A program made the translations under genes and the position numbers. From IMG/VR virus record IMGVR_UViG_3300027710_000024: a stretch of 20,000 bases of DNA. One strand, 5' to 3'. The notes under the pieces were generated by a model. That model was not told the origin of the DNA. It worked only from the letters and a program-made list of their open reading frames with translations, and did no database searches. Origin of the DNA: an uncultured virus (IMG/VR IMGVR_UViG_3300027710_000024) (taxonomy: Duplodnaviria > Heunggongvirae > Uroviricota > Caudoviricetes). Every line of letters begins with the position of its first letter. Position 1 is the stretch's first letter. Shown here one piece after another: positions 1,486 through 19,706 of this stretch.

Positions 1486-1487
1486 CG

Positions 1488-5224: not shown

Positions 5225-5264
5225 GCCTAAGTCTGATTGGGCATACGTATCCGCCGCCGCCAAC

Positions 5265-5319
5265 ACAAACAATTCTTAACTTAAAACCCTAATTTAAGTT
5301 AAGAATTGTTTGTTTTTTT
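5265..5319 (+). terminator. Perfect 21-bp inverted repeat plus T-tract between the convergent gene blocks
   Basis: ACAAACAATTCTTAACTTAAA (5265-5285), 7-nt loop, TTTAAGTTAAGAATTGTTTGT (5293-5313), then a T run. Confidence 0.7.
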
Positions 5320-5325
5320 AAACCT

Positions 5326-5484
5326 TTAATCAAAGTAACCTTCCGCCCACAATCCCCCAAGAAACTCGTGAGTCTTACACAAGCTTCCGTGTAACCAAGG
5401 GTCATCTTTTTCGTTTGTTTTTTCTATGGCTGTAGTAACGCAAGCCATCATATTATCTAGATCTTCTTTAGTAAATCCTAGCAT
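5326..5484 (-). CDS. Hypothetical microprotein, 52 aa (MLGFTKEDLDNMM...GLWAEGYFD), not in the ORF track
   Basis: AAGGTGG SD; overlaps the end of 5478..5774 and fills the gap to the terminator. Confidence 0.7.
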   Translation of the reverse strand: MLGFTKEDLDNMMACVTTAIEKTNEKDDPWLHGSLCKTHEFLGGLWAEGYFD

Positions 5485-5774
5485 TGTTTTACCACCTTAT
5501 TTGTAAACTCGTACTGTTCTTCTGAGCGAATGCATTCAAGGCATACAACTTCTTCATCTCCGTCTTCATCGGTGAATACAAAGAAAGCCTCATCTATAAA
5601 GCTACAGTGATCACATATGTGGACTGTTGGATCCCTATCAAATATGTAGCAGGAGTGACATTGAACTGCGTCTATATATTCGTCTGGATATGCAAGCTGA
5701 TTACCACATATGCAAAACCCCACATACCCTGCCGGCAATTCAATTAATGCTTCTTTAACTGTAGAGCTGCTCAT
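5478..5774 (-). CDS. Cys-rich putative zinc-binding protein
   Basis: CIC, CHSC, CDHC and CLEC motifs; tight packing with neighbours. Confidence 0.7.
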   Translation of the reverse strand: MSSSTVKEALIELPAGYVGFCICGNQLAYPDEYIDAVQCHSCYIFDRDPTVHICDHCSFIDEAFFVFTDEDGDEEVVCLECIRSEEQYEFTNKVVKQC

Positions 5775-5988
5775 CTTCTTGTTCTCCGTTCTGGATAAGC
5801 TTCATAGGCTCACCCGTATCGTAGTTATCTACTGAATGTATCATTGTCCAGCCTTCGTTCTTTCTTAGATCGCCGTATTCCCCAGCGTCTATTCTGTCTT
5901 GTATCTCTTCTTGAAGCCCTATTGATGAAACATCTTCAAGCAACATTGAATAGAACTCAACTTTTTTTACGATAACTTCAACGTTCAT
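5755..5988 (-). CDS. Hypothetical protein (start MNVEVIVKK)
   Basis: AAGGAGAG SD before the ATG at 5988, immediately after the upstream stop. Confidence 0.7.
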   Translation of the reverse strand: MNVEVIVKKVEFYSMLLEDVSSIGLQEEIQDRIDAGEYGDLRKNEGWTMIHSVDNYDTGEPMKLIQNGEQEDEQLYS

Positions 5989-5989
5989 A

Positions 5990-6445
5990 TTACTCTCCTT
6001 TCTTTTTAATTGATGTAATAGATTTGCCATCTTCCCTAGGCCAGACATAAGGCAGGTCATCTGGACCAGGAAACTTGTAGTGGGTTATATCTTTTCTTTT
6101 TAGGTTAGACCGGTGGCTTCGGTGAAGTGCTCGTTTACCTAACCACCAAGGTCGTTTGTATCTGTCTGCTGGTATTTCTTTGCACAACTCTTTTGCTTGT
6201 TGAAGGCAAGTATCTTTATAGCCTAATCTAATCCACCGTTCACAGATAGCTACTGTGTAGAGGAATAACTGTCCTTCGTATCCTCGCCACATTACTGCAG
6301 CTGGGTGGTTTCTCCAACCTTTAGTTTTACCTAGATTAGCCTTTAGAATTTGCAGGGCTTCTACCCGTTGTTTTCCAAGCCGTTTTACATCTAAAGCTTC
6401 AGCAGATTTATTGTAATCTGGAAAGGGTAAGAATGTATTAACCAT
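5990..6445 (-). CDS. Pyrimidine-dimer DNA glycosylase / MSMEG_6728-family protein
   Basis: MVNTFLP...LDVKRLGKQRVEALQI...HPAAVMW...PWWLG...HRSHRSNL...YVWP family pattern; true start taken at MVNTF. Confidence 0.85.
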   Translation of the reverse strand: MVNTFLPFPDYNKSAEALDVKRLGKQRVEALQILKANLGKTKGWRNHPAAVMWRGYEGQLFLYTVAICERWIRLGYKDTCLQQAKELCKEIPADRYKRPWWLGKRALHRSHRSNLKRKDITHYKFPGPDDLPYVWPREDGKSITSIKKKGE

Positions 6446-6554
6446 TTGGATCCCAACAATCTGGGCAAGAAGTAACCATACGAACTTGCTCCGTATCGTG
6501 AGGCTCTTCGTATGAATCGCCCGCACACTTTAAACATATAAACAATATGCTCAT
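6438..6554 (-). CDS. 38-aa zinc-ribbon microprotein (MSILFICLKC...SCPDCWDPNG), not in the ORF track
   Basis: Two CxxC pairs; fills the gap between 6559 and 6445. Confidence 0.6.
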   Translation of the reverse strand: MSILFICLKCAGDSYEEPHDTEQVRMVTSCPDCWDPNG

Positions 6555-6558
6555 ATTT

Positions 6559-6810
6559 TTATCCTATACTGACGCCCTCTTTTTTAGCGTCATAGCCGAT
6601 GTCTTTTAGGTTTTTTCTTATCTCTAATATAGTCCGCCTATCTTTAGTTCTACCTGAAGATAAGATTACTTGTTGCTTTGTTTCATTATTAAAGACGCGT
6701 ACGTGACCGCGTGTAGTTACAGTTACCGAAAGGCCCGATTTTTGTAGGGCTCTCACTAACTTTTTCATGTTTTTATCTTTAAGTGCAAGTGCTGCAAAGT
6801 AAAGTTGCAT
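6559..6810 (-). CDS. HicA-like (dsRBD-fold) toxin/RNase family protein
   Basis: KKLVRALQKSG..V.....GH..V...V.LSS...D.R....I...LK.IG pattern with the GH motif; AAGGAGG SD. Confidence 0.6.
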   Translation of the reverse strand: MQLYFAALALKDKNMKKLVRALQKSGLSVTVTTRGHVRVFNNETKQQVILSSGRTKDRRTILEIRKNLKDIGYDAKKEGVSIG

Positions 6811-6879
6811 GGGTGGTTTCCTCCTTTCTTTTCCTGTGATATAGTTATGACACTCTGAAGAGAGTATCTCTGTCGAGAG

Positions 6880-6928
6880 AAAAAACAGCCCCGCAAGGTA
6901 TTTTTCTGGATACCTTGCGGGGTTGTTT
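6880..6928 (-). terminator. Intrinsic terminator
   Basis: Minus strand: AAACAACCCCGCAAGGTAT, loop, ATACCTTGCGGGGCTGTTTTTT. Confidence 0.85.
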
Positions 6929-6939
6929 GTGTTGGTGTG

Positions 6940-7131
6940 TTACTCGGGGACTTCTTCGCATTCGAGTACTTTTATGTACTCACCCGGGCGAAGATACTCA
7001 TCATTAAGCGCGGTACGTATGAATTGGTCATAGAACCATAAGTCCCAGTTATGCTCTGCAGCATAGGGTGGTTCTATCCGTCCTTCGTATACGCATACTT
7101 CAAACGTTAGTTGAAGTTTTACCATTGCCAT
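6940..7131 (-). CDS. Hypothetical protein
   Basis: 63-aa ORF, GGGAG SD, contiguous packing. Confidence 0.65.
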   Translation of the reverse strand: MAMVKLQLTFEVCVYEGRIEPPYAAEHNWDLWFYDQFIRTALNDEYLRPGEYIKVLECEEVPE

Positions 7132-7134
7132 AGA

Positions 7135-7815
7135 TTACTCCCTTTCGTTAGCATCACCCCCATCTGACAAACCCAACCATAGATCTTGGAATTTGCCGAG
7201 ATGAAGACTAATTTCTCTGAAGCTACTGTCGTACTGGCCACGATTTTTAATCTCGCCCGCCATCCCAATAGCCCAGCCGCATGTGTTTTCTGAAGGAGCT
7301 TCAATGTCGAAGCTGTAATGAAACATGATCTTTGGAAAGTCAATGCTCATTTTGTGATAGATTCCGCTTGGTGGTTTGATGCAGGTATCAAATTCAAATA
7401 CCGCTATCTTTTCAGGTTTGAGGTCTTTTCTAATTTTCATAGGAAGACCGGTTAGTACACCTTCGGTAAGCATATGAGTTGCTACTTGAATATTAACTGG
7501 TTCTTTGGGGGTAGTCCAGTGTTCTTCTTTGAAGGTATACGAATCTAAAGCCTTGTATTTTTCTAGAACACTTGGCTTTATGTTTAGTGGGTTGAACGTC
7601 TTTAGCTCATCAGGCACGGGCTTAACTTTGTTAAAGCTTATGGCTTTTGAACCATCAGATAGGTATTGTATTACTAAGTCAACGTCGGCAGCTGAGCCGA
7701 TCATAACTAACTGATTCTTACAGTCATAATCAGAATGCCTATCAATAACCATCTGATTGTGACGTCGTTGTTCTTCTCTTTCTTTTTCGTCGTCAAAGTT
7801 GACGTTGCTACTCAT
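7135..7815 (-). CDS. YubB/Api92-like ferredoxin-like domain protein (DUF1281-related)
   Basis: C.N.L...G, SFNKVKPVP, EHWTT and FEFDTCIKPP...FP...F.Y resemble the C.N / F....P.P / NWGTKW / FDTAWSPP signature. Confidence 0.6.
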   Translation of the reverse strand: MSSNVNFDDEKEREEQRRHNQMVIDRHSDYDCKNQLVMIGSAADVDLVIQYLSDGSKAISFNKVKPVPDELKTFNPLNIKPSVLEKYKALDSYTFKEEHWTTPKEPVNIQVATHMLTEGVLTGLPMKIRKDLKPEKIAVFEFDTCIKPPSGIYHKMSIDFPKIMFHYSFDIEAPSENTCGWAIGMAGEIKNRGQYDSSFREISLHLGKFQDLWLGLSDGGDANERE

Positions 7816-8080
7816 CGTCTATGCCCCTCTCGGCTTTGTGTTTTTGGATAATTGCGGTCTCGTAAGATTTAATCCTCTCGCTTGACCACGTCAGCATTTC
7901 CATTAACTTACCCTCTTCTTCGAGGGAGTTAACCAGGAAATTATTCATTGCGCAAATCTGCTCTAGTGCAAGAGATTTGAACGGTCCAGGTACTTTTGAG
8001 ATATCATAATCTAGGTTTAGATCAGTTAAGCTGGATAATGAGAAGCCATCCTCATCATCTTCATCATCGTGATTGTGCAT
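7808..8080 (-). CDS. Hypothetical protein
   Basis: 90 aa, GGGGG SD, overlap with the next gene. Confidence 0.65.
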   Translation of the reverse strand: MHNHDDEDDEDGFSLSSLTDLNLDYDISKVPGPFKSLALEQICAMNNFLVNSLEEEGKLMEMLTWSSERIKSYETAIIQKHKAERGIDDE

Positions 8081-8088
8081 TTTTCCCC

Positions 8089-8655
8089 CTAATCGATTTG
8101 TTGTACGGTATTGAATTGATCTTTAAAACTAGAGATTAAGTAGGGCAAGTCCCCGTAGAACTTAGCATCTATAAACTCTTCGCTTGATTGATCAAACAAC
8201 GATATATATTGACATATTTTCTGGTAACGACTTGGAGTAATGCTACCTTTATTGTCAGTATGCGACAAAAAAGCTTGCTTTACCGCTACGTTAAGTTTGA
8301 GGATGTTTGTGTTGGCTTCTGACCTTTTGTACGGATAACCTTCAATTTGATTTAACATAATCCGTACATCTATAGATGCATCAGGTGTGGAGTAATCATA
8401 GTGATAATGCCAGTCAAACTTTAAAGTGTTATCGCTATGAGCTTCAGCTAACTGCTTGAGCACAGCACCCCAGTTTTCTTGCATCCAGGCTACCACAGTC
8501 TTACCAGAAACGGTTTCCTCGCCATCAACCTCAAGATGTTTTACTTGGTTGTATGCATCTTCTAGCCATTCTTTGTTTGCCTTTAGCTTTTCTAGTACGC
8601 TAACTCGACGGACTAAGAACGGCGTTGCTTCTATCTTCTTCGACGCTGTTGCCAT
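8089..8655 (-). CDS. Hypothetical protein
   Basis: 188 aa, GAGGAGG SD. Confidence 0.75.
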   Translation of the reverse strand: MATASKKIEATPFLVRRVSVLEKLKANKEWLEDAYNQVKHLEVDGEETVSGKTVVAWMQENWGAVLKQLAEAHSDNTLKFDWHYHYDYSTPDASIDVRIMLNQIEGYPYKRSEANTNILKLNVAVKQAFLSHTDNKGSITPSRYQKICQYISLFDQSSEEFIDAKFYGDLPYLISSFKDQFNTVQQID

Positions 8656-8851
8656 CGTCTGCCTCCTCTACTAGTTTTGATGTATTGTTGAGGAACCACT
8701 CTGTTGGGCTACACGCTTGGTGTATATCAAAGACTAGTCCTCTTTCATTAAGCCAATCGCTTGCCTCCATAGAGAAGGCAAGCGCTTGGTCTTCAGTATC
8801 GAATGGTCCAACGCATTCTTGCGTTAGAAGATCAAGAGCTATGTAACTCAT
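8600..8851 (-). CDS. Hypothetical protein (GPFDT motif)
   Basis: 83 aa; starts 2 nt after the upstream stop. Confidence 0.6.
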   Translation of the reverse strand: MSYIALDLLTQECVGPFDTEDQALAFSMEASDWLNERGLVFDIHQACSPTEWFLNNTSKLVEEADDGNSVEEDRSNAVLSPSS

Positions 8852-8853
8852 GA

Positions 8854-9312
8854 TTAATCTTTGTCCTGTGATACCAGCTGCTCGAACATCTCGAGATTCT
8901 GTATGGCAGAAGCCAGACCACCTGCAGCTACTTCCTTGCGGGTAGGCATTTCAGCCTCACCGTCAGACATTTCGCTTAGCATTGTGGCTTTGCCAATTGT
9001 GATAAGAACTGGGTGTTCTTTTCGTAGTGACATGCCACGCATCAACGCTTCCTTACAGCGACTACTACTGCGGTATTCGCCATCAAAGAAGTATTGAGAA
9101 GCTGCGATAGCATATAGACCCAAGGCTAAGTCTGGGTTAGAGGAGTTATTAACTACATCGTCCGCTAACTCAAGCCACCAATCAGGATCATACTTTGTAA
9201 AGTTGGCATAGTCACAGAAGACTGGCTTGTAATCAATCAATACAATCATCTGCGCTATGTCTGCTTTTGCAGCGTCTTTTCCTAACGCCTTGTCTAGAAT
9301 TTCTCTAAACAT
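8854..9312 (-). CDS. Hypothetical helical protein
   Basis: 152 aa, GGGAGG SD. Confidence 0.75.
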   Translation of the reverse strand: MFREILDKALGKDAAKADIAQMIVLIDYKPVFCDYANFTKYDPDWWLELADDVVNNSSNPDLALGLYAIAASQYFFDGEYRSSSRCKEALMRGMSLRKEHPVLITIGKATMLSEMSDGEAEMPTRKEVAAGGLASAIQNLEMFEQLVSQDKD

Positions 9313-9326
9313 TGCTTTACCTCCCT

Positions 9327-11306
9327 TTAGTTATTTAGTCTGCGCTTTTTAATTGCGCCTACAACTACCGACTTGGCAAGTTGTAGTAGATCTTTGCCAC
9401 CGTTTACTCGCGCAAACAGTTCGGCCCCATGGCTGAAGTCAGTCTTGTCTCTAAGACTTTGAGCCATATTGTTTCTAGTAACGGCGTCATTGTATGAACC
9501 TTCGTCCATAATCAACACCATGACTGTTAGCACACCACGTTTAGCTAGTCGCTCAATAACTGGGTTGTTCTGCTTACTGTCAAACTGACCGTCAGTAATT
9601 AAGAACAACATTTTATTTGGGCGAGTAGACATCATAAAAGTCTTCTCGGATAGGAGCAAAGACTCGTATGGGTCTGTGCCGCCTTGGCCGTGGATGAACT
9701 TGTATGTGGTGCGTCCTGCTTTATCTTGCTTTCTGTAGGCTATCTCGTTCTTATCATCAAAGGCATAGACCGTTACAGAACAGTCAATGCTTTCCAAGGC
9801 ACGCTTAACAGTCCAGCATGCTACTGATGCTTTTTTGTCATTAGCGCCTGAGCTCATTGAAGATGACCGGTCGATTAAGATGACGGCTTCAATATTAGTT
9901 GAGTCGTCTCCTGTAGACCATGAGTCGAATGACTTGTCAATATCACACCCGCGCATAACGCGAGGCATATTGAGTTTGCCAGCAACTGTCTCTCTTTCCC
10001 AGGCCGGCTCAGAGTCATCCTTTAACTTACGTAGTTCATTTGCAAACCTACGATAGTCAAGTAATGCTTTGGCAGGAACTGGTGCATCAGAGAACTTACC
10101 AAGAGCAGAGTTATCATCCCAGTTTTCATCACCGTGAACGATAATATTCTGCTTGCGCTTGACATCTTTGATAACGTCTTTGCGATCGTATATCGTTTGG
10201 ATATCATTTTCCAAAAGGTCGTTGAGATCTTTAGGCAATCCGCCCTCGCTCTTAACGTGAGAGTTACCCCAGGTATTGAGTTGAGTTGGCTTATCTAGTT
10301 TCTCTTCGCGCTTTTGTAGCATCTCTTCTTGAGTCATAGATACTTCAGTGTGTGTTTGTGTTGGCGGGGTAGAACCATTGCTGGTTCCTTCACCTTCTAC
10401 AGACTCACCTTTTTGCGGACCACTGTTGTGCGGTTCGCCAGGGAAACAACCTTGTTCGTTTGGTTGAGATCCCTGTTGCGATTGTTCTAACGGCTCCTTA
10501 GGTATGTAGAATGACTCAGGCTTACCCATCGTAGAAGCAACTCGTGCGTCACGTTCTTGGGCTTTACCTGGTTCAGGTCTACCTTTTTTGATTGGCGAAC
10601 GAGCATCACAGCTGCCAAGACCACATTGAGGTGGTATATCCATCTGTGAGATAATCAATTCGTGGAACTCTTTGATTAGTTTTTCTGCTCGTTTGTAGTC
10701 CCTAGGGAATGCTAAGCACCGATACTCATTTGTGATTCGTTGAATATCGGGGATTAGTTCAGGCTTGTAGAACAAGTCCCGAAATGCTTCGCGTATTTTT
10801 ACGTTGATATGCCTACGACCAGCGATAAGAGGGTAGTTAGTGAACGCAGCTTCAGGGGTGGTCTGCAGCCAGATTAAGGCAGCAGATTGAAGATACGGAC
10901 TAACACTGGGATATCTAGCACAGAGTAAAGACTCGATGCGTTGATCTTCCAGGATGTTAAAAGATGTATAGTAACCTTGCTCTATTACATACTTTAACAG
11001 CGTAGTTCCTTCGCGGGGCGTGTAGAAATGATGAGCCAGCTCGTGGTAGTTTAGACCAGAAACTTTAGTCAACATCTCAAGAGATATCTCGCCGATGTGC
11101 TTTTGATTGATGTAGATATTCTCACCATCAGACCAGGTTACTGCTGGGCCATCCTCTACAACATGGACGTTGATTGGATCACCTGTCAGAATTCGGTCAG
11201 CACCTTCGTATACTCGAGACAATGCAGACAACTGTAAAGCTCTCATCTGCATTGCCTCTTCGCGAGCAGCACCGTTTTTTGATATTGTAGTATCTTGATA
11301 CGGCAT
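9327..11306 (-). CDS. VWA-domain protein with N-terminal HExxH metallopeptidase-like domain (MoxR partner)
   Basis: HELAH...FNILED; low-complexity linker; MIDAS DRSSSMS, GGT and LITDG. Confidence 0.88.
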   Translation of the reverse strand: MPYQDTTISKNGAAREEAMQMRALQLSALSRVYEGADRILTGDPINVHVVEDGPAVTWSDGENIYINQKHIGEISLEMLTKVSGLNYHELAHHFYTPREGTTLLKYVIEQGYYTSFNILEDQRIESLLCARYPSVSPYLQSAALIWLQTTPEAAFTNYPLIAGRRHINVKIREAFRDLFYKPELIPDIQRITNEYRCLAFPRDYKRAEKLIKEFHELIISQMDIPPQCGLGSCDARSPIKKGRPEPGKAQERDARVASTMGKPESFYIPKEPLEQSQQGSQPNEQGCFPGEPHNSGPQKGESVEGEGTSNGSTPPTQTHTEVSMTQEEMLQKREEKLDKPTQLNTWGNSHVKSEGGLPKDLNDLLENDIQTIYDRKDVIKDVKRKQNIIVHGDENWDDNSALGKFSDAPVPAKALLDYRRFANELRKLKDDSEPAWERETVAGKLNMPRVMRGCDIDKSFDSWSTGDDSTNIEAVILIDRSSSMSSGANDKKASVACWTVKRALESIDCSVTVYAFDDKNEIAYRKQDKAGRTTYKFIHGQGGTDPYESLLLSEKTFMMSTRPNKMLFLITDGQFDSKQNNPVIERLAKRGVLTVMVLIMDEGSYNDAVTRNNMAQSLRDKTDFSHGAELFARVNGGKDLLQLAKSVVVGAIKKRRLNN

Positions 11307-11320
11307 GTCTTTTACCTATT

Positions 11321-12745: not shown

Positions 12746-12807
12746 TTGCCTTTTCCCTTTCAGTTTATTACTGCACCCGATGTGCAGTTCACCGTTTTAC
12801 CGGCTAG

Positions 12808-12849
12808 TGTGCTAGACAAGAATCGAACTTGTCAATAGCCTTTTAGCAC
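12808..12849 (-). ncRNA. tRNA-like minihelix (acceptor stem plus T-arm only)
   Basis: GTGCTA-AAAGGCTATT-GACAAG-TTCGATT-CTTGTC-TAGCAC-A. Confidence 0.6.
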
Positions 12850-12856
12850 TGAAAGG

Positions 12857-12894
12857 AGAAAGACCGGCGCCGATAGCAGACACGCCGGTCTTTC
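12857..12894 (-). other. 12-bp GC-rich hairpin
   Basis: GAAAGACCGGCG / CGCCGGTCTTTC; no good U-tract. Confidence 0.6.
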
Positions 12895-12922
12895 ACCTAC
12901 AATAAATTTACTGTCGAATTTA

Positions 12923-13051
12923 GATACTAGGGTCATGCAGAGGCATCACTCCACGCTATAGTCATTGGGTTTAGGAATAAAGTCTCACCGATATCAGACA
13001 TGACCACTTTATTGCTAGCACCAGAGCTGCTATGACTCGATCCTAAGTATC
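12923..13051 (-). ncRNA. Structured RNA element closed by a GATAC...GTATC stem
   Basis: Minus-strand GATACTTAGG..GTCATAGCAG pairs imperfectly with CTGCATGACCCTAGTATC. Confidence 0.4.
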
Positions 13052-13070
13052 GCCGTTTTCTAGAGACAGC

Positions 13071-13745
13071 CTAACTTACGGTAGGTTCCTCATCATCTAG
13101 GATGTACCCCGTTACAATATCTAGTCGTAACGGTTTTCGTCCATCCCATTCAGTTGGTATGGATTTACCACCCACCTGAACTTTTCCTGCGGTGCAATAT
13201 GCACACGTTTGTTTTTCTCTGTGATTAATATAACGATTGACATTTTCTTCTGGAATAGTGCATATAACTCGTAGCATTATGCTTTTTCCATTGAATTGGG
13301 TTACTTCTTTATAGCCATCTATACCGTTGCAGGTGATTATATTAAAGCCTTGCCCACTACATGAGGTGCAGCGCCTAAACTTTATAGGTTTCTTTGGATC
13401 AAGTTGCCTGTGTATGTAATACTTTCGTTTTTTATAGTCTATGCCTATAAGATTTGCATAGTTTGCCATCGCTCTTCGGGTAGCAGGTCTTATTCTGTGA
13501 TACCCATATAAAGACGGCAATATAACAACGCCGTTTGGTTTGTAAGTAACTAATTGAAACGAGGTTTGATGAGTAAAAGTAATTGCCATAGTTGTATCGT
13601 CAATTCTTCTAAGTACAAGCCCCCTGTCATATAAAGGACGATATAACTCAGGGTTTTTACCGCCGATTAAATAATCTACAGCTGAATCAAAGTCGTGACA
13701 TTTACGGTCGCGGTTTTGCTCCAAGAGTTGATCTTTTGTAATCAT
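13071..13745 (-). CDS. Hypothetical protein with DnaJ-type zinc-finger motifs
   Basis: CTSCSGQG and CAYCTAG; AAGGAGG SD. Confidence 0.7.
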   Translation of the reverse strand: MITKDQLLEQNRDRKCHDFDSAVDYLIGGKNPELYRPLYDRGLVLRRIDDTTMAITFTHQTSFQLVTYKPNGVVILPSLYGYHRIRPATRRAMANYANLIGIDYKKRKYYIHRQLDPKKPIKFRRCTSCSGQGFNIITCNGIDGYKEVTQFNGKSIMLRVICTIPEENVNRYINHREKQTCAYCTAGKVQVGGKSIPTEWDGRKPLRLDIVTGYILDDEEPTVS

Positions 13746-13754
13746 GGTTCCTCC

Positions 13755-14072
13755 TTATCCTACTTTTGTCTTGCGCCTAATGGCTAACCTTTGTTCCTCC
13801 GTTAATCCTCCCCAGATACCATAATCTTGGTGGGTATCTAAAGCGAACTGTCTACAGGTCTCTATTACGGGACACGCATTGCAACAGGCTACAGCCAGAC
13901 TGATACGCTTTTCTTTGTCTGGCCCCCTCTCTTGCTCTTCGTAGAAGAATATCTCTGTATTTTTTAAGTCATTACATAAGCCTTTTTCTTGCCACGCCCA
14001 GTTGTCATAAATAGGGGTTGGCATATGCTTACTAAATTGACTAGGAGTATATTTTTCTTTCTTTCTTGTCAT
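13755..14072 (-). CDS. whiB: WhiB-family Fe-S transcription regulator
   Basis: W...GLC...FF...CNACPV...C...A......GIWGGLTE.QR; AAGGAGG SD. Confidence 0.95.
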   Translation of the reverse strand: MTRKKEKYTPSQFSKHMPTPIYDNWAWQEKGLCNDLKNTEIFFYEEQERGPDKEKRISLAVACCNACPVIETCRQFALDTHQDYGIWGGLTEEQRLAIRRKTKVG

Positions 14073-14095
14073 ATAACCTCCTTGGGCATGAGTAA

Positions 14096-14128
14096 TGAGC
14101 AGTTTAGCCTTGTCATGCTCAGGACAGG
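14096..14128 (-). ncRNA. Compact H-type pseudoknot, copy 1 (whiB leader)
   Basis: TGTC-CTGAGCAT-GACA-AGGCTAAAC-TGCTCA. Confidence 0.6.
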
Positions 14129-14213
14129 AAGCAGATATACCCCGATGCTTACGGGACGTGTTTTACCTTAGGTCTCGTCAGACCAAAGACACTCCTCCTT
14201 CTAGAGTGCGCCG

Positions 14214-14287
14214 TGCGCTGTGTAGGACTTGAACCTACGACGACCGAATTATGAGTTCGGGGCTCTAACCAACTGAGCTAACAGCGC
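14214..14287 (-). tRNA. tRNA with CAT anticodon (elongator Met or Ile2); CCA not encoded
   Basis: GCGCTGT/ACAGCGC acceptor, D arm GCTC..GAGC, anticodon arm CCGAA-CTCATAA-TTCGG, T arm GTAGG-TTCAAGT-CCTAC, discriminator A. Confidence 0.95.
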
Positions 14288-14319
14288 GGGCCAGCGAATG
14301 TTTGTGTTGGCCGGTGTTT

Positions 14320-14475
14320 TTACAGTGAATCTTTAAACTTCTCTACATCACTAACTATAGTAGCAACCTGCTCCTGCAGTAATTCAATATGCTCTGCAAG
14401 AGAAGCCATTACTATATTTAAATCCTTAAGCATTGCATCAATATCTATATCTTTTTTATCTTGGTCTTCGGGCAT
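14320..14475 (-). CDS. Small coiled-coil hypothetical protein (start MPEDQDKK)
   Basis: GAGG SD; TAATG coupling with the upstream ORF. Confidence 0.65.
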   Translation of the reverse strand: MPEDQDKKDIDIDAMLKDLNIVMASLAEHIELLQEQVATIVSDVEKFKDSL

Positions 14476-14690
14476 TATCGATCCTCTCGTGTTGAGAACA
14501 GGCCTGTATGTTCCCACTCTTGTTTAGGTTCAAAAGAGTTCTTCCATTTAAACTGACCATTCCTAGCCTGAAAATACCTACCAACAACTACGTTAGGGTT
14601 CCTAGGATAGTCCGCAAGCCATATCTGAGCTTTTAGTGGAAGTTTCCAGTATAGCCATACTGGAATTGCTTTGTGCAACCGTTCCTTCAT
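14475..14690 (-). CDS. Hypothetical protein
   Basis: 71 aa, AAGGAG SD, TAATG coupling. Confidence 0.65.
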   Translation of the reverse strand: MKERLHKAIPVWLYWKLPLKAQIWLADYPRNPNVVVGRYFQARNGQFKWKNSFEPKQEWEHTGLFSTREDR

Positions 14691-14860
14691 TACGCCATCT
14701 CCTTTACTGTCTTATATGTTTCCCGATTTTCGGCAAACAAGGCGCCATACGCTTTATCTTTACTTAATCTTCGTAGTTCTATCATTAATGAACTAATAAC
14801 AATTTCTATTGGTATTGGTTTTTCAGATATAATACGTACGTGATGATTATATTCGTGCAT
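14690..14860 (-). CDS. Hypothetical microprotein, 56 aa (MHEYNHHVRI...), not in the ORF track
   Basis: AAGGAG SD; its stop overlaps the next ATG. Confidence 0.65.
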   Translation of the reverse strand: MHEYNHHVRIISEKPIPIEIVISSLMIELRRLSKDKAYGALFAENRETYKTVKEMA

Positions 14861-14870
14861 TAATTACTCC

Positions 14871-15290
14871 TTACTTAGATCGTTTTGATGTGCGCCACAT
14901 GTGGGCATTTTCTGATTTAACACCTATTGCTGTAAGCCCCATTTCGACTAATACATCGTCAATATGAAACTTTAGTCTTTCTAGATCTTTAGCGTCAAGC
15001 CTGACTAGGCAAGAGGTGTCAAAGTCTTGAACAACAAGGAAGGCTGTGTTGTCTGTTTTGCACCCTAGTATGTATCCGGATTCTTTTCTTGTTAAATCGC
15101 TTGATATGGTGTATTGACCTTCTGCAAGCAACTTGTGTCTTTTAAAGGCATCCATTAATGGTGCATAACTGTCTTTAGTGCGGGATTTGTTTGTGTTGGA
15201 GTTGGCTAGTTCTATAGCTTCGTCCTCGTGTTTTTCTGTGTCAACAACTTTAGGCTTTGCTACACGTTTGGGGGTTGCTTTTTTAACCAC
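14871..15290 (-). CDS. Hypothetical protein with basic N-terminus
   Basis: 139 aa, GAGGAG SD, GTG start. Confidence 0.7.
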   Translation of the reverse strand: MVKKATPKRVAKPKVVDTEKHEDEAIELANSNTNKSRTKDSYAPLMDAFKRHKLLAEGQYTISSDLTRKESGYILGCKTDNTAFLVVQDFDTSCLVRLDAKDLERLKFHIDDVLVEMGLTAIGVKSENAHMWRTSKRSK

Positions 15291-15396
15291 GACGACTCCT
15301 CAATACTGTTACTACTGCTTTAGTGATTGCCAATATAATGATAGTCACTAAGAGAGTATCGATCGAGCCATCAGATAGGTCGAGATTGATTGTCAT
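15283..15396 (-). CDS. 37-aa single-pass membrane peptide (MTINLDLSDGSIDTLLVTIIILAITKAVVTVLRSRRG)
   Basis: AAAGGTAAGG SD; hydrophobic stretch followed by a basic tail. Confidence 0.6.
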   Translation of the reverse strand: MTINLDLSDGSIDTLLVTIIILAITKAVVTVLRSRRG

Positions 15397-15426
15397 ACCT
15401 TACCTTTCTACTGGATGGTTGTGGGA

Positions 15427-15529
15427 GGCAGAGAGTGTTTACCCAATACGCTGAGAGATGTAACGGATTTGCCCTCTGTACCGAGCAGGAATCATTGTCA
15501 TGTTGGATCACGTGTAGACACCCTCTGCC
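15427..15529 (-). ncRNA. Structured element closed by a 16-bp stem
   Basis: GGCAGAGGGTGTCTAC ... GTAAACACTCTCTGCC on the minus strand. Confidence 0.5.
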
Positions 15530-15700
15530 CCAAGATAAGAATCAGAATAAGTCAGCACGTGTCAGATACAGCTCCTCTAGCTTTTATTGCACATTCCTTC
15601 GAGTTCTGTATCTCAAGCCTGTGTGGTCCGCATAGATTCCGCGGTACTAAGTATCTATACACCACTTGAGTCTTAGTTGATTCCTACCTTTACCTGTCGA

Positions 15701-15931
15701 GAGACAGATAGGGAGCGTACTTACGCTAAACGAATCAGTTATGTAATCGTGAAGACGCTTAAGGCTGCAGCATTGGGCATCATTCCAGAAGTCACACACA
15801 TACTAAGCACATACGCTCTCTTACTCAGTATGCTCACTCTTCTTTACTAATGACTACACAGGCGTCCCGACAAGGACTCTGTCAGTGCCGGGTGTCGATG
15901 TTTAGCCGTAAGTACGCTTCCTACCTGTCCC
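15701..15931 (-). ncRNA. ~230-nt structured RNA closed by a ~29-bp stem
   Basis: Arms 15703-15731 and 15900-15929; internal 12-bp hairpin at 15798-15833 with 3 G-U pairs on the minus strand. Confidence 0.6.
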
Positions 15932-15954
15932 TACTTATGTTCTTTCATATGATT

Positions 15955-16022
15955 TTGTAGGGTGAGATATGCAAAAGCAGAGCGAACTTCAATCTCTTTT
16001 TTGCATACCTCACACACTACAA
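15955..16022 (-). ncRNA. Long hairpin
   Basis: GTGAGGTATGCAAAAAAGAG ... CTCTGCTTTTGCATATCTCAC, plus an outer TTGTAG/CTACAA pair. Confidence 0.5.
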
Positions 16023-16037
16023 CGCGATTGCTTGGCA

Positions 16038-16298
16038 TTAGTGCGTTCTTTCCGCAAACCTAGCGGCAGCATCATTTATATTGTCAAAATAGTCTCCCCA
16101 TACACAGCCTCCTGTTGCGTGGTTATATGTCCATACAACAAAGGGGTGATAGGTAGATTCTGGGGCGTAACATAGAATTACGTCACAATCTGGGTTAGAT
16201 GGTTTAAGGTTTAAAATGGTAGCGCCTTTAGATACACCACCATCGCCTTGTATTACTGTGCCAATCTTAATGGTCACAATAGTATTTTTATCTGTCAT
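16038..16298 (-). CDS. Hypothetical protein (start MTDKN; YHPFVVW...WGDYF)
   Basis: ATGA overlap with the upstream ORF; exact start uncertain. Confidence 0.65.
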   Translation of the reverse strand: MTDKNTIVTIKIGTVIQGDGGVSKGATILNLKPSNPDCDVILCYAPESTYHPFVVWTYNHATGGCVWGDYFDNINDAAARFAERTH

Positions 16299-16507
16299 TT
16301 TGTAATCCATACTCCTTTTTGCTCGTCTAGGACTGATTCTTGTATCTCCCAGTCCGCTTCGTTCCACCGGATTTGATCATCCATTATTGGTGCGATTTTG
16401 TCTATGAACTGTTGCATAAACTCCTCGGCTTGCTTTTTGTTCTTTGCCTTGATTTCAACTATAGAAATTGAAAGGTCAGTAGAATAGAACTTTTGCTGTT
16501 TACCCAC
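16295..16507 (-). CDS. Hypothetical protein (GTG start, MGKQQKFY...)
   Basis: GAAGGGA SD before the GTG at 16507. Confidence 0.6.
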   Translation of the reverse strand: MGKQQKFYSTDLSISIVEIKAKNKKQAEEFMQQFIDKIAPIMDDQIRWNEADWEIQESVLDEQKGVWITK

Positions 16508-16547
16508 GGCATATCCCTTCTGGCTGGTTGTTTGTGTTGGGGAAGGA

Positions 16548-16697
16548 TTACGGGCATTTACATATTCCCTTCTCGCACTCATAGTTCTTAACTGCTTCAG
16601 CAGCAGTAAATCCCTTGAGTAGTTCTTGCGCAACGAATAGGTCTTTCTCCAATTGCGCCATACTATTTAGTGTATTAGGTTTTTCTTGTATAGCCAT
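16548..16697 (-). CDS. Hypothetical microprotein (MAIQEKPN...CEKGICKCP)
   Basis: TAAGGA SD before the ATG at 16697. Confidence 0.55.
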   Translation of the reverse strand: MAIQEKPNTLNSMAQLEKDLFVAQELLKGFTAAEAVKNYECEKGICKCP

Positions 16698-16728
16698 TGT
16701 TGTCCTTACACTATGACTTACCTCTGGG

Positions 16729-17010
16729 TTGAGATAAGTAGGAGACACACTGAATTACGTACGGAATTATCGGGAGGCTCACTCTCCAGTGATCTCTTGC
16801 ATCGTCAAGGTCTGCCTATAGTTGCGCATTCCATAGGCTCAACGAACAGCGTGAGAGGGCTAACATTTCCCACGGGGCGTCTCTTACCCCACGCTGGCCA
16901 TCCAGATTGTTTCTTCATACCCTTAATCATTCCGATATAGCCTCCAGAATGATTCGTGTATCCTCAGTGACAATCGTGCTTCTCTCCAGTGTATCTCCTG
17001 CCTATCTCAA
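16729..17010 (-). ncRNA. ~280-nt structured RNA closed by a 24-bp stem
   Basis: Arms 16729-16752 and 16987-17010 (2 G-U and 1 mismatch on the minus strand); internal stems CAGCGTG/CACGCTG, GCCTAT/ATAGGC and AATCATTC/GAATGATT. Confidence 0.6.
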
Positions 17011-17034
17011 ATCTTTTTCGGGGGAAATTTAGGG

Positions 17035-17064
17035 TGAGCAGTTTGTCTCCTCTTACTCAGGAGG
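17035..17064 (-). ncRNA. Compact H-type pseudoknot, copy 2
   Basis: CCTC-CTGAGTAA-GAGG-AGACAAAC-TGCTCA. Confidence 0.6.
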
Positions 17065-17094
17065 CGTATCCCCTCCTATAGGGGCACGATTGCT

Positions 17095-17346
17095 TTATTT
17101 TACGGGGCGTAGATAGCCATTGGTTTTGCGGTAAGCGTAGATACGTTGTCTAATAGCGCGGGGATTTGGGTAATCTATTGCTGTTGCTATGTGCTGTATC
17201 ATAATTCCGTCATCTACTAGGGATACTAATAGACTATCGAACTCATTAGCTTTGCTATCTCTTTTGCCGTGGTTACCTCTTGTTGTGCTGATATCAGGCA
17301 TCAACTCTCTGAGCCTGTCGATATGCTGGCGATGTATGGTTTTCAT
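17095..17346 (-). CDS. Small basic protein, possible helix-turn-helix
   Basis: LVDDGIMIQHIATAIDYPNPRAIRQRI has HTH-like spacing; no SD, with the 12-mer sitting upstream instead. Confidence 0.5.
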   Translation of the reverse strand: MKTIHRQHIDRLRELMPDISTTRGNHGKRDSKANEFDSLLVSLVDDGIMIQHIATAIDYPNPRAIRQRIYAYRKTNGYLRPVK

Positions 17347-17364
17347 CGGGCGTGTTTGTGTTGG

Positions 17365-17559
17365 TTACGACTCGTCGATACAGTCTGTAACATATCTATC
17401 GGTATAGATGACGATTTGTCCATCATTATCAATCTCTGTGCCACAATAGTCGGCAAGTTCAGAGATCATATAATCAATAGACATATAGCGGCGTGAGACA
17501 TACCAGGTGATGCCCGCTGTGAGCATCATCAGGAGCAGAGTAAATCCGTTAAAGAACAT
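17365..17559 (-). CDS. Small membrane-anchored hypothetical protein
   Basis: N-terminal hydrophobic helix FTLLLMMLTAGITWYV. Confidence 0.65.
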   Translation of the reverse strand: MFFNGFTLLLMMLTAGITWYVSRRYMSIDYMISELADYCGTEIDNDGQIVIYTDRYVTDCIDES

Positions 17560-17560
17560 A

Positions 17561-17713
17561 TTAAATCACCACTGCCATCTCTTCTTTGATGAAAGCATAG
17601 GCATTAGCACAGGTATAGCAATACCTTTCGGTGGGGATACCTCCTAGTATAAATGCTGCGGTTCCGCTATGAACTAGGTCGGTGTTGTTACAGCCTTTGA
17701 CCTGACACTTCAT
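17561..17713 (-). CDS. 50-aa Cys microprotein (MKCQVKGC...YCYTC...), not in the ORF track
   Basis: Cx4C and CxxC; TAATG coupling with the upstream ORF. Confidence 0.65.
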   Translation of the reverse strand: MKCQVKGCNNTDLVHSGTAAFILGGIPTERYCYTCANAYAFIKEEMAVVI

Positions 17714-17877
17714 TATGAGCCTGCTTTCAGGCGAGGATTGTCAATACGGACTAGCTTGTGCTTGTTGCGTCGTTCGTTATACACAAGAGTCCAGATTTTC
17801 TTTTTCCAAGCCTTGCCATTGGGACGATTGGCTCCTGTTTGAACTTTGACAGGAGTTGAACTACCTTTTTTAGCCAC
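17713..17877 (-). CDS. 54-aa highly basic microprotein (MAKKGSSTPVKVQTGANRPNGKAWKKK...), not in the ORF track
   Basis: TAAGGAGG SD before the GTG. Confidence 0.7.
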   Translation of the reverse strand: MAKKGSSTPVKVQTGANRPNGKAWKKKIWTLVYNERRNKHKLVRIDNPRLKAGS

Positions 17878-17956
17878 GAACCCTCCTTAGATTAGGTTGG
17901 GCACCAAAGACTATCTTTACGCAAGAACTTTGCAACTTTGATGCCCGTTACTCCGC

Positions 17957-18042
17957 CGAGATGGGGAGTGAGAGATACACAGGCCAGACATACTTTACCG
18001 TTTAAGTTATACACACCTGTGTATCTTCCGCCACCCATATCG
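17957..18042 (-). ncRNA. Paralogous stem-loop element B
   Basis: 27-nt arms at 17957-17983 and 18016-18042. Confidence 0.65.
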
Positions 18043-18077
18043 AAGCCAGCCCACGATATTTAAATTAAAAAGGCAAT

Positions 18078-18114
18078 AAAAAAAGGGGAGACCGTAGTTA
18101 CACAGTCTCCCCTT
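18078..18114 (-). terminator. Intrinsic terminator
   Basis: AAGGGGAGACTG, loop, CGGTCTCCCCTTTTTTT on the minus strand after ORF 18124..18369. Confidence 0.85.
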
Positions 18115-18123
18115 GATCTATGA

Positions 18124-18369
18124 CTAAGAGATAACTAACTCCTCTTTGTCGAATACTTCTAGCAGGTCAGAGGCTAGTTCAATCTCCGCACCTATTGGAG
18201 ATGTAGCCTTGAGATGCCGTAGGTAGGTAATCATCGTGTCGAACTTGGTCATCTTACCCACAGCACTAGTGATGATTCCGGCCTTTTTTTCGGGGGAGCA
18301 TAAGCAATCCCCGTTATATATCTCTACCAGATGAATACTAGTAGGGATAGAGTCGTTTAGAGACGACAT
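18124..18369 (-). CDS. Hypothetical protein
   Basis: 81 aa, AAGGGAG SD. Confidence 0.7.
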   Translation of the reverse strand: MSSLNDSIPTSIHLVEIYNGDCLCSPEKKAGIITSAVGKMTKFDTMITYLRHLKATSPIGAEIELASDLLEVFDKEELVIS

Positions 18370-18392
18370 AATAACTCCCTTAGTTATTACCC

Positions 18393-18489
18393 TCAGATAG
18401 AGGGTGAGAGATACATAGGGAAGGTAAGACCTACACGCTACCGTGAGCCTCAGTCTGGTTGTCCTATGTATCCTTCACCAACTACCTGA
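18393..18489 (-). ncRNA. Paralogous stem-loop element A
   Basis: 27-nt arms at 18393-18419 and 18463-18489. Confidence 0.65.
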
Positions 18490-18633
18490 TAACAGGCAGC
18501 CGAACCCCTCCCAGACCTGGTGTTACAACTTGGGAGTGGTTTGCCTTCCCTGATAGTGGCTAAACAGCCATAACCAGACAGGGGTTTTATCCCCTGCCTG
18601 ATTAGAGTGGTTTAGACTCCTGCCGTGAAAGAA

Positions 18634-19200
18634 TTACTCAGAGAAAGAACCCTTGAGTAATAGATAGATAGGGAACAAGAGGTTCTTAGACTCTTGATCC
18701 ATATCCGCGCCTAGAGACTTCTCCAACGCCGACTTGAAAGCAGGAGTTGTTGAAGCGAGTGATGCCGCCGCTGCTTCTTTAGCAGCCTTGAGAGCAGCAG
18801 CCTTCTCAGCAGCAGCCGAAGCCTTGGCAGACAAGATGTCTACCGCGTCTGGGTTGCCTACGAGAGGCTTGATGTCTGTCCAGTCTACCTTTGTGAAGGC
18901 AGCAGCAATCTCAGCGTCTACGCCTGTGGCAATAAGAGCGCCGAGATAGATTGGCCGTTGGTAACCATTGGTGAGGAACTTCTTATCAACAGACTCTGAG
19001 TCTGTCTTATCCCCACGATTAGCCATAGCATTGACGACCAACTGACGGGTTGAGGTAAGGATTTCATCGACGCTACCGCCGTTGATAATGAAGTCCGCAA
19101 CATTGCGACGAACTTCTGGGGCAGCGAGGTTGGCATTACCAGCAACGAATACACCCTGCGACACTGTGTCGAGGGTCTGTGTCATTGTTTGTGTTGACAT
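18634..19200 (-). CDS. Hypothetical protein with an Ala/Lys-rich helix; first gene of the leftward block
   Basis: 188 aa, TAGGTAG upstream of the ATG. Confidence 0.75.
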   Translation of the reverse strand: MSTQTMTQTLDTVSQGVFVAGNANLAAPEVRRNVADFIINGGSVDEILTSTRQLVVNAMANRGDKTDSESVDKKFLTNGYQRPIYLGALIATGVDAEIAAAFTKVDWTDIKPLVGNPDAVDILSAKASAAAEKAAALKAAKEAAAASLASTTPAFKSALEKSLGADMDQESKNLLFPIYLLLKGSFSE

Positions 19201-19641: not shown

Positions 19642-19650
19642 TGTTATGAT
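19642..19650 (+). promoter_or_regulatory. Putative extended -10 promoter for hsp20
   Basis: TG-T-TATGAT about 57 nt before the ATG. Confidence 0.4.
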
Positions 19651-19706
19651 TGGTTAGTCCTGCCAATCGGGGGACAATTAACTTATATCGTCTAAGGAGA
19701 TATATT

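Follow-up and report, generated by a model that had tools for sequence, protein, structure and literature searches.

A strict 12-bp word in the early arm of lake actinophages as a putative recognition site of a phage-encoded protein

A strict 12-bp word (consensus YCAACACAAACW) is repeated through the early genes of an actinobacterial phage from a lake and of related phages. The data support well the view that it is recognised, as double-stranded DNA, by a phage-encoded protein, and that it marks the early arm next to a genome end. Among 45 core genes, the best trackers of word type are DUF6321 and a mini-HNH protein with the I-HmuI fold and intact catalytic residues. We tentatively suggest, at rather less than even confidence, that the words are programmed nick sites, read most likely by this 97-aa I-HmuI-like HNH protein, perhaps together with DUF6321. 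Oriented words in lytic phages are usually classed as stoperators for which no reader is named. The family offers three aids to an in vitro test that needs no culture of the lake host: a small enzyme as candidate, two naturally occurring variants of the word between which specificity could be swapped, and cultured relatives that lack the word and can act as controls.

Results

The window, by which we mean the whole 20,000-nt stretch of DNA analysed, contains nine exact copies of CCAACACAAACA and one further copy, TCAACACAAACA, matching at 11 of 12 positions; all ten coordinates of the preliminary description are correct (Table 1). In 200 dinucleotide shuffles of the window the 12-mer was found with a mean of 0.00 and a maximum of 0, in line with the earlier estimate of far less than one copy by chance, and the minus-strand copies are 824-2049 bp apart, as the approximate spacing first given (0.8-2.0 kb) implied. 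All ten are sense relative to local genes. The two reading frames reported for in-gene copies are also borne out (PTQT at 12284 and 10353 and STQT at 19186; ANTN at 8304 and SNTN at 15188), and within the MoxR linker, an otherwise gapped stretch, neither the PTQT peptide nor its codons vary. The statement that five copies follow stop codons has to be qualified. The copy at 16529 is just past a stop and also within the next ORF, while the one at 14299 is better described as lying about 10 nt 5´ of a tRNA gene. The copy at 5260 does lie 3´ of the stop of the plus-strand operon, by 36 nt, and is also the base of a 23-bp hairpin (5265-5313). Its partner is a decayed inverted copy at 5307-5318 that retains 9/12 letters; an inverted "cap" copy is conserved at this convergence site in related genomes, and the hairpin is probably a bidirectional terminator as well.

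Table 1. Word copies and landmark features of the 20,000-nt window
Feature	Position	Strand	Remarks
Class II ribonucleotide reductase (RNR)	3007..5049	+	near end of main-strand block
Word copy	5260..5271	+	convergence of RNR operon with early arm
Decayed head-to-head pair	5260..5318	.	word, 14-bp perfect inner arm, 7-nt loop, arm, degenerate inverted word
Early arm	5326..19200	-	small variable genes, MoxR/VWA, WhiB, pyrimidine-dimer glycosylase, tRNA; word-dense region
Intrinsic terminator hairpin, 13 pairs	6889..6922	-	immediately 3´ of the 6924 word
Word copy	6924..6935	-	between stop codon and intrinsic terminator
Word copy	8304..8315	-	within 188-aa ORF, ANTN frame
VWA-domain gene with word	9327..11306	-	VWA domain
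Word copy	10353..10364	-	low-complexity linker of VWA protein, PTQT
MoxR-type AAA+ ATPase gene with word	11321..12745	-	domain AAA_5
Word copy	12284..12295	-	MoxR linker, PTQT
WhiB gene	13755..14072	-	
tRNA gene, CAT anticodon	14213..14287	-	
Word copy	14299..14310	-	leader of tRNA gene
Word copy	15188..15199	-	within 139-aa ORF, SNTN frame
Word copy	16529..16540	-	just past one stop and within next ORF, PTQT frame
83-aa ORF (HTH, earlier proposed as reader)	17095..17346	-	
Word copy	17353..17364	-	immediately 3´ of stop codon
TCAACACAAACA, member of consensus YCAACACAAACW	19186..19197	-	codons 2-5 (STQT) of 188-aa ORF, first early gene
Divergence region	19201..19691	.	probable genome ends

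The WhiB gene in the early arm points to an actinobacterial host. The closest cultured relatives are the Borockvirus-like Streptomyces phages BRock, Alone3, GiJojo and LuckySocke, which have 71-74% capsid identity and the same two-arm layout; BRock is virulent and has a 221-bp repeat. Synteny with BRock, Alone3 and GiJojo makes it probable that the genome ends, with a short terminal repeat, lie in the divergence region. The word, HNH, RHH and DUF6321 are all absent from these three phages.

Across the family the word is kept at 4-15 copies per complete genome. Exact 11-mers numbered 98 in 937 kb, with 1.0 expected and 2 for a reversed control, and single substitutions at core positions occur only 0-4 times each; the one clearly tolerated substitution is at the last base (T). 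A site behind the capsid gene is all-or-none, the exact word being present in 24 of 65 distinct loci and a one-mismatch word in 0. The earlier proposal of selection at the nucleotide level holds, since 26 of 31 [PS]TQT peptides are written with the word and 6% would be expected. Within early-arm borders that we chose ourselves, density is about tenfold that elsewhere (55 per 112 kb versus 37 per 775 kb), uneven toward a genome end whose position is taken from the cultured relatives. The word is not enriched in 401 Actinomycetota genomes, a sample outside which the true host may fall: 92 have a copy, with at most 6 per genome, near the reversed control. A related clade uses CCAACYNARCAA instead. 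The word thus behaves as a phage-coded signal and not a host-wide one, as had been suspected.

That the word is always sense, as the window had suggested, is true of the window and of the early arms of its lineage (42 sense, 0 antisense, the copies being non-independent) and not of the family. We counted 236 non-redundant sites from 43 sources. Antisense copies make up 78 of them: 69 lie in intergenic DNA flanked by genes of the same strand, 8 within ORFs and 1 at a divergence. Of the 69 intergenic copies, 63 sit behind an intrinsic terminator, in spacers where transcription on that strand is unlikely. In-gene copies are 84 sense to 10 antisense, near the 5.7:1 that codon composition predicts. 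In sister lineages the word is antisense or forms inverted pairs in spacers between terminator and promoter, and pairs of the sister word are both head-to-head and back-to-back. A strict tie to transcription direction is therefore not supported, and on our preferred reading orientation is not the word's function, though the 42:0 count in this lineage, non-independent as it is, leaves room for some real polarity. Most genomes carry the word on both strands; in G010 all 10 consensus copies are on one.

The paired elements, several per genome and all within the early arm, have a structure of their own. Perfect inverted arms of 18-25 bp, word included, are found in 36 of 59 back-to-back elements, and their stems hold 1825 Watson-Crick against 28 G-T pairs, as a DNA-type stem would. 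A DnaA box lies 0-39 nt past one word copy, on one side only, in 36 of 56 elements; in G015 a CRP-like box lies about 60-70 nt from the word. DnaA, CRP-like and GTTAT-repeat boxes substitute for one another among elements, and neither a DnaA nor a CRP-like box occurs in the window, where one decayed pair is the only one. Pair spacing has no helical phasing (Rayleigh p 0.21-0.46), and neither divergence nor breakpoints are in excess on either side of the word. One spacer, L356, has the opposite orientation to its homologues.

The candidate reader is encoded by a free-standing ORF in a variable gene block, a few kb past the right end of the window. Its AF2 model (pLDDT 81) is predicted to combine a beta-sheet DNA-binding domain with an HNH core bearing D-H and N ligands. 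In a fold search of 48,161 chains the best match was the nicking enzyme I-HmuI (rmsd 3.1, 82 aligned), at a Z of 6.1, within the range that the tool warns can reflect a common arrangement; I-HmuI was also the top Foldseek match (E 0.053). I-HmuI residues D74, H75 and N96 have assigned roles, and in the candidate D59, H60, N72 and N81 are invariant in 64 sequences. Model residues 1-91 align to residues 10-105 of 174 in 1u3e, and the C-terminal HTH domain of the I-HmuI type, which goes with a site of about 24 bp, is absent from this 97-aa protein; the forms of it that were searched spanned 53-170 aa.

Of 8 complete or near-complete word genomes, all but G009 (95% complete) carry the gene. It also occurs in G442 and in 11/11 further word genomes, and the 7 complete relatives without the YCAACACAAACW word lack it. 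When core genes were scored for being alike across the two word-sharing subclades and divergent in the sister-word clade, DUF6321 reached +15.9 and HNH +13.6, with 42 others at +3.5 to -10.3; the two top genes are neighbours and may be hitchhiking together. On the terminase tree the change of word and the change of HNH type fall on the same branch and together form a single event. The DNA-facing hairpin of HNH is shorter in the CCAACYNARCAA clade, and variants merely 60-67% identical retain the same word.

Two readers named earlier fared less well. The 83-aa HTH ORF is rejected as not conserved: it has no tblastn match in any of the 13 other relatives tabulated besides G003, and a co-occurring variant skips it. 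WhiB is not favoured, with homologues in word-less Streptomyces relatives too.

Discussion

Programmed nicks were discovered in phage DNA decades ago, yet there is no consensus on what they do (PMC3517423). In tf they fall at a strict 9-mer; 11 of the 14 sites are in one half of the genome, which has a terminal repeat of 186 bp and is organised in two convergent blocks (PMC3517423). The interruptions of tf/LUZ24-like and phiKMV-like phages and of T5 (PMC3517423; 10.1101/619015) share with our word a strict, asymmetric sequence and lineage-specific variants. The tf group has 8-14 copies, genome-wide but denser toward one end, a bias seen here likewise, and tf-type phages and this one are alike in being lytic, with two convergent blocks and, probably here too, a short terminal repeat. 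T5 encodes its nicking genes, sciA and sciB; the counterpart here would be the candidate HNH. I-HmuI and I-BasI, nicking HNH homing endonucleases (1u3e; PMC3017599), have the same beta-sheet and HNH architecture and D-H...N motif. Unlike I-HmuI, the candidate is 97 aa and free-standing, and is kept in nearly every word genome rather than intron-encoded and patchy, and it would act at many positions in the genome that encodes it, where a homing endonuclease has a single target.

On this model each word would be nicked by HNH in one of its strands, and the outcome would be programmed single-strand interruptions of the kind found in tf, phiKMV and T5. By the precedent of tf and phiKF77, nicking might come late in infection and sealing follow entry, and the nicks could serve as swivels or entry points in the first-used, most heavily transcribed DNA. 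In genes and leaders the A/C-rich strand would be cheap to write as sense, a placement that would also fix the strand of the nick relative to transcription; in untranscribed spacers the word could lie in either direction, capping hairpins. In this lineage an ancestral-looking promoter-spacer layout may have given way to a dispersed sense-only array. Several points weigh against the nick reading. The words occupy both strands while known nick sites occupy one (PMC3517423), and the two words of a palindromic pair lie 43-85 bp apart, so that nicks in both could sever the genome. The case for HNH as reader is weakened by the single joint switch of HNH and word type, with possible hitchhiking of neighbouring genes and a DUF6321 score as high as that of HNH, by a Z within the range of common arrangements, and by the HNH variants that keep the word at 60-67% identity. 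The nicks of tf, phiKMV and T5 have been shown physically, whereas those here are putative, and many of our sites, unlike theirs, form hairpin-capping pairs beside DnaA boxes.

The fixed spot upstream of early promoters, beside DnaA or CRP-like boxes, looks regulatory, which also tells against nick sites. A bolder and more doubtful proposal is that a widespread family of lake actinophages has domesticated a minimal nickase of the I-HmuI type, which would cut the phage's own genome at a word of 11-12 bp peculiar to each lineage and would change in step with that word. In ancestral-looking lineages, word pairs would cap cruciform-forming palindromes next to host DnaA or CRP-like boxes upstream of each early promoter, so that nicking and hairpins would gate early transcription or start replication. 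If true, this would provide a named enzyme-site pair for programmed phage nicks, whose purpose has lacked an answer since T5. Should the nickase reading fail, the cassette of hairpin, word and DnaA box upstream of early promoters, of which we found no description in the literature searched, would still be a control element of an abundant group of freshwater phages.

It is possible, though on balance doubtful, that the word is instead an operator or roadblock, bound by a phage regulator that would silence or organise the early arm in the later part of infection, acting as stoperators do but in a lytic phage; promoter-upstream pairs would block host activators and in-gene copies would stall elongation. 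The location of pairs between terminator and promoter, next to DnaA or CRP-like boxes, and the density of the word in early genes suit this reading, as does the precedent of L5. The stoperators of cluster A mycobacteriophages (L5 gp71, TipsytheTRex; PMC9283540) are asymmetric 12-13-bp sites in many copies, placed at promoters and in transcribed regions in an actinobacterial host, and the window's sense orientation recalls them. In sister lineages, however, orientation is free, with pairs in both orientations, and the sites are stricter than stoperators, mismatched ones being nearly absent, which is unusual for a repressor. The L5 analogy offered in the preliminary description also fails on temperate lifestyle: integrase and serine recombinase (PF00589, PF07508) are absent in 5/5 complete genomes, so the words are not true stoperators, and PHROG matches of 123 G003 proteins include no gp71-like repressor. 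As for a reader, an Arc-like RHH protein occurs in every complete or near-complete word genome tested, but its reading strand, PKTPTRT[IV]RV, is unaltered in 5/5 sister-word genomes and its contrast is only +3.5. A MerR-like core protein is 45-47% identical between word-sharing subclades and present in word-less relatives too. Nor is the missing helical phasing what this reading would favour.

Small origins of replication or recombination are an improbable explanation. Word, hairpin and DnaA box would be nick-primed or initiator-bound starts, and single copies half-sites feeding recombination-dependent replication. The perfect arms with their Watson-Crick stems, the one-sided DnaA boxes, the inverted spacer and the phage's own helicase, loader, primase, recombinase and resolvases speak for it. 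The multiplicity of elements in one arm, their poverty in the window and the lack of divergence or breakpoints beside the word speak against it, and the interchange of boxes is as expected of promoter inputs.

Still less probable is that the word directs DNA translocation (injection or packaging) as a polar signal, or that the host reads it (as Chi, KOPS, an uptake sequence or the site of a host regulator). Concentration at one inferred genome end and the single-strand array of G010 fit such a signal, and in T5 an injection-stop region proposed in silico joins inverted repeats, palindromes and DnaA boxes near a genome end (10.1101/866236). That is one complex region in a 10-kb terminal repeat, however, while here there are many small cassettes, and contig depth, a weak test, gives no sign of a long repeat. 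Both strands and both pair geometries are used, and a host-read word would be expected neither to be as rare in Actinomycetota nor to differ between phage lineages. Least probable is a signal read on transcripts (cleavage, stability, termination or antitermination): window copies are all sense, some lying before terminators, in the tRNA leader or after the capsid-gene hairpin, and MazF is a weak match to the HNH profile (E about 0.01), but antisense copies behind terminators and pairs in both geometries make an RNA-level role unlikely, in-gene copies have no hairpin enrichment, the post-capsid hairpin lacks a U-tract whether the word is present or not, and the fold search groups HNH with I-HmuI, not MazF.

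Word type changes between phage lineages, and several relatives speak against the nick reading. In G013 and G445 HNH is present and the word absent from 39 and 44 kb of fragment. G439 and G440 have other strict words, mostly sense (GCTTCATACC, 20 copies; GCTTAATACC, 18), and no detectable homologue of HNH. G448 combines a distant HNH with a palindromic word that is more like a dimer operator. In the window itself, a population variant departs from the sequence immediately 3´ of the word copy at 17353.

A strict word selected as DNA

The preliminary description reported nine exact copies of an asymmetric 12-mer, CCAACACAAACA, and one copy of TCAACACAAACA, between 5260 (+) and 19186 (-) of the window. 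All ten were recovered at their places, with none in 200 shuffles, and the word ranks top among the repeated words of the window. The arrangement also held: the single + copy comes after the + block, and - genes surround the nine - copies, which are spaced by 824-2049 bp. As the window covers part of a phage genome, family-level results were drawn from relatives' records, with genes called by our own simple caller. Across 14 records (937 kb), the 11-mer CAACACAAACA was observed 98 times versus 1.04 expected, and its reversed control twice. In these records, each single-base change within the ten-position core was found 0-4 times; the sole clearly tolerated change was T at the last base (12 versus 1.0 expected), giving the consensus YCAACACAAACW.

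Judged by its spelling within genes, the word is selected as DNA. It spells 26 of 31 [PS]TQT peptides, as against the 6% predicted by codon usage, and in the MoxR linker, which is gapped yet has an invariant PTQT, it is used in 9 of 10 MoxR genes among the matches listed. At the post-capsid site, 24 of 65 distinct close loci have the exact word, 41 lack it and none has it one base off, from which we conclude that individual sites are gained and lost in free space; it was missing in 60 of 60 distant loci. Nine complete or near-complete genomes held 55 words in 112 kb of the early arm versus 37 in 775 kb elsewhere.

Phage, relatives and host

The window encodes a class II RNR, a queuine-tRNA-ribosyltransferase-like protein, MoxR, VWA, WhiB, Hsp20 and a tRNA, and an Rfam search of it found nothing besides the tRNA. 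MoxR relatives span 58-97% identity and include four records of ~99 kb. The relative G003 (97% MoxR identity) has a contractile tail, its own polymerase, helicase, loader, primase and recombinase, and three WhiB proteins. The capsid protein is encoded on at least 599 IMG/VR stretches, and the nearest cultured phages by capsid (71-74% identity) are Streptomyces phages BRock, Alone3, LuckySocke, pSt2308 and GiJojo. WhiB, this kinship and the run labels point to actinobacteria as hosts and to lakes as habitat. BRock, a virulent myovirus, has a terminal repeat of 221 bp (PMC7453282), and in the three records examined (BRock, Alone3 and GiJojo) the genome ends lie at the divergence point of two arms. 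A long terminal repeat covering the early arm was rejected, the contig depth in sequencing run X1, which may be where the window's DNA comes from, being 84-125 across the window, the tRNA bin excepted.

Orientation and paired elements

That the word always stands in sense, as first proposed, is true of the window's lineage only, where early-arm copies were 42 sense and 0 antisense in seven genomes. It is not a family rule. In four relatives (G010, G011, G015 and G443), the copies of the early arm are antisense and occupy terminator-promoter spacers, and a fifth, G442, has back-to-back pairs, 3 of 4 of which make perfect Y-shaped stems. Among 236 non-redundant sites, those in ORFs were 68 sense and 8 antisense, and between genes the corresponding counts were 90 and 70. 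Of the 69 antisense sites flanked by same-strand genes, 63 lay behind a predicted terminator. For coding DNA, a Markov model gave 1.03 sense and 0.18 antisense expected (5.7:1), and 84 and 10 were observed. Both in-gene counts greatly exceed chance, and little extra polarity is required to explain their ratio. Replichore orientation accounts for two antisense sites of G003 but leaves the pairs and the conserved copy at the convergence unexplained.

Scanning IMG/VR for back-to-back word pairs yielded 66 stretches and 59 distinct elements, the per-element detail being that of the elements listed. Three of the matches (G467-G469), with 0-1 consensus words, probably arose by chance. Of the 59 elements, 36 have perfect arms of 18-25 bp, word included, with 1825 Watson-Crick versus 28 G-T pairs. 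A DnaA box lies 0-39 nt past one copy in 36 of 56 elements, never on both sides, and other elements have CRP-like or GTTAT-repeat boxes; the DnaA, CRP and parS labels in spacers follow the usual consensus sequences. The boxes suggest that host state is sensed, or host proteins recruited, by early genes. Within the window, the site at 5260 belongs to a head-to-head pair that has decayed. Pair spacers showed no helical phasing, and a spacer flip-flop was rejected (23 same versus 6 inverted pairs); among the five inverted pairs listed, the single element L356 takes part in four, and the fifth seems mis-oriented.

Other lineages use other words

The canonical word is found in 0 of 5 records of a related clade, which carries instead a sister word, CCAACTCAACAA, counted as CCAACNNARCAA at 8-25 copies. 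Its pairs are 13 head-to-head and 12 back-to-back, with both forms inside G475 and G477; inner arms are 14-19 bp in 21 of 25, and all end within 1 bp outside the word. Three loci with the sister-word pair pattern (L499-L501) have no HNH match and look like chance repeats. Two further relatives have GCTTCATACC (G439; 20 copies, 19 sense) and GCTTAATACC (G440; 18 copies). No dispersed word was found in BRock, Alone3, GiJojo, G433, G436 or G437, and locus L170/G029:C7 was set aside, having no match to family markers.

In a quick-search terminase tree of 58 rows, whose root is set by one long outgroup and is unsure, the window's lineage forms one clade with support 100. Lineages with pairs fall to either side of the word switch, and spacer pairs therefore look ancestral.

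Candidate readers and modes of action

The data show a strict duplex site that is concentrated in the early arm and specific to its lineage. Outside transcribed DNA it can stand in either orientation, and it often lies at the base of a hairpin. Its reader is very probably encoded by the phage. Kept in word genomes and absent from Streptomyces relatives are a 47-aa RHH protein, a 97-aa HNH protein, DUF6321 and a few small unknowns. RHH and HNH each occur in 11 of 11 further word genomes and, in a separate set of eight complete records, in one, namely that with the word. The reading strand of RHH is unchanged in 5 of 5 sister-word genomes, and RHH was rejected as reader. Also rejected were a MerR-like core protein, which varies where the word is constant and is present in word-less phages, and the 83-aa HTH ORF of the window (17095..17346), which a variant in run X1 skips.

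We tentatively favor HNH as the reader and nicking as its action. The predicted HNH fold (pLDDT 81) best matches the nicking enzyme I-HmuI, with D59, H60, N72 and N81 invariant. A MazF-like profile likeness was not upheld by fold search. The HNH of the sister-word clade has a hairpin some three residues shorter. In most core genes, the pair-bearing subclade is as close or closer to that clade than to the window's lineage; the opposite trend, following the word, is seen for DUF6321 (+15.9) and HNH (+13.6), while on the same contrast a baseplate gene gave +10.1, on one homologue, and 42 other core genes +3.5 to -10.3. Against this reading, the HNH/word switch is one event on the terminase tree, and neighboring genes possibly hitchhike with HNH. 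No HNH homologue was found in G439 or G440, and cultured phage records gave no match to it. Nicking at paired words would carry a risk of breakage, which also counts against the nickase reading.

If HNH does nick the word, the nicks would be made late and sealed after entry, as is reported for phikF77 (PMC3517423), and could relieve torsion or open the first-used DNA. In working, the word is most like the nick sites of tf/phiKMV/T5 (PMC3517423; 10.1101/619015) or the L5 stoperators (PMC9283540). As defined, it belongs to neither class: it breaks the one-strand rule for nick sites and, for stoperators, the rules on orientation and lysogeny. Comparison extended to I-HmuI/I-BasI (PMC3017599) and the T5 injection-stop region (10.1101/866236). 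A literature search for the word, its architecture and the family, with subscription papers largely outside it, found no description.

An operator that shuts off early genes is a possible but doubtful alternative to nicking. It would work like the stoperators offered initially as an analogue; neither tyrosine integrase nor serine recombinase was found in the five complete genomes searched. A promoter element was rejected: there is no conserved -10 at a constant distance, and several copies lie 5´ of terminators.

It is unlikely that the word primes replication as an origin or primes recombination. A recombination breakpoint or mutation hotspot was rejected: 37 pairs were upstream-only and 29 downstream-only, a comparison confounded by indels, and by site family the counts were 6 and 11 of 26. 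Single joints near 17353 and 8315 are anecdotal only. We consider a translocation signal or a host-read word quite improbable; 92 of 401 Actinomycetota genomes had any copy, with at most 6 per genome, close to the reversed control; two of these genomes, G079 and G270, are unpublished, have one copy each and support no claim made here. An RNA signal is very unlikely. RNA runs X17-X20 contain 5-8% of words, and X17 contigs match 9 of 30 bins, uninformative on expression. The word is no stand-in for a terminator U-tract, the post-capsid hairpin being U-poor with or without it.

Further features of the window and of relatives' records
Location	Feature	Observation
Window 95-1024	309-aa core protein	No Pfam or PHROG match; its GS...D.D motif resembles that of nucleotidyltransferases
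Window 1476-2957	Queuine tRNA-ribosyltransferase-like gene (phrog_887)	Family core, BRock included; may be linked to deazaguanine DNA or tRNA modification
Window 15700-15932 and 17880-18630	Long intergenic stretches	Several imperfect inverted repeats, 37-nt element twice; no Rfam match; may encode small RNAs or act as promoter cassettes
Window 17068-17352	83-aa ORF skipped in run X1 variant	Joint at the 17353 word; depth 46 of ~106
L009:6569-6838 (G003)	SpoVS-family gene	73-99% identity across lake genomes; also in BRock-like phages
L012:7203-11255 (G003)	Small, highly basic proteins encoded in a block around HNH and DUF6321	May bind DNA and be packaged
G008 86286	Word 5´ of degenerate tRNA-like sequence	Echo of the window's tRNA-leader site
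L299-L364; G015 31368-34850; G442 45442; G002 41001; G026 5523	Early promoter spacers with host-type boxes	DnaA, CRP-like TGTGA-N6-TCACA, GTTAT direct repeats, parS-like GTTTCACGTGAAAC
L290-L295 (G439); L391-L395 (G440)	Relatives of 65% GC	Own strict sense words, mostly in genes; one fixed frame in G439
L396-L397 (G448)	Palindromic word TTCGCA(C/G)TGCGAA	13 copies in 40 kb; distant HNH homologue nearby
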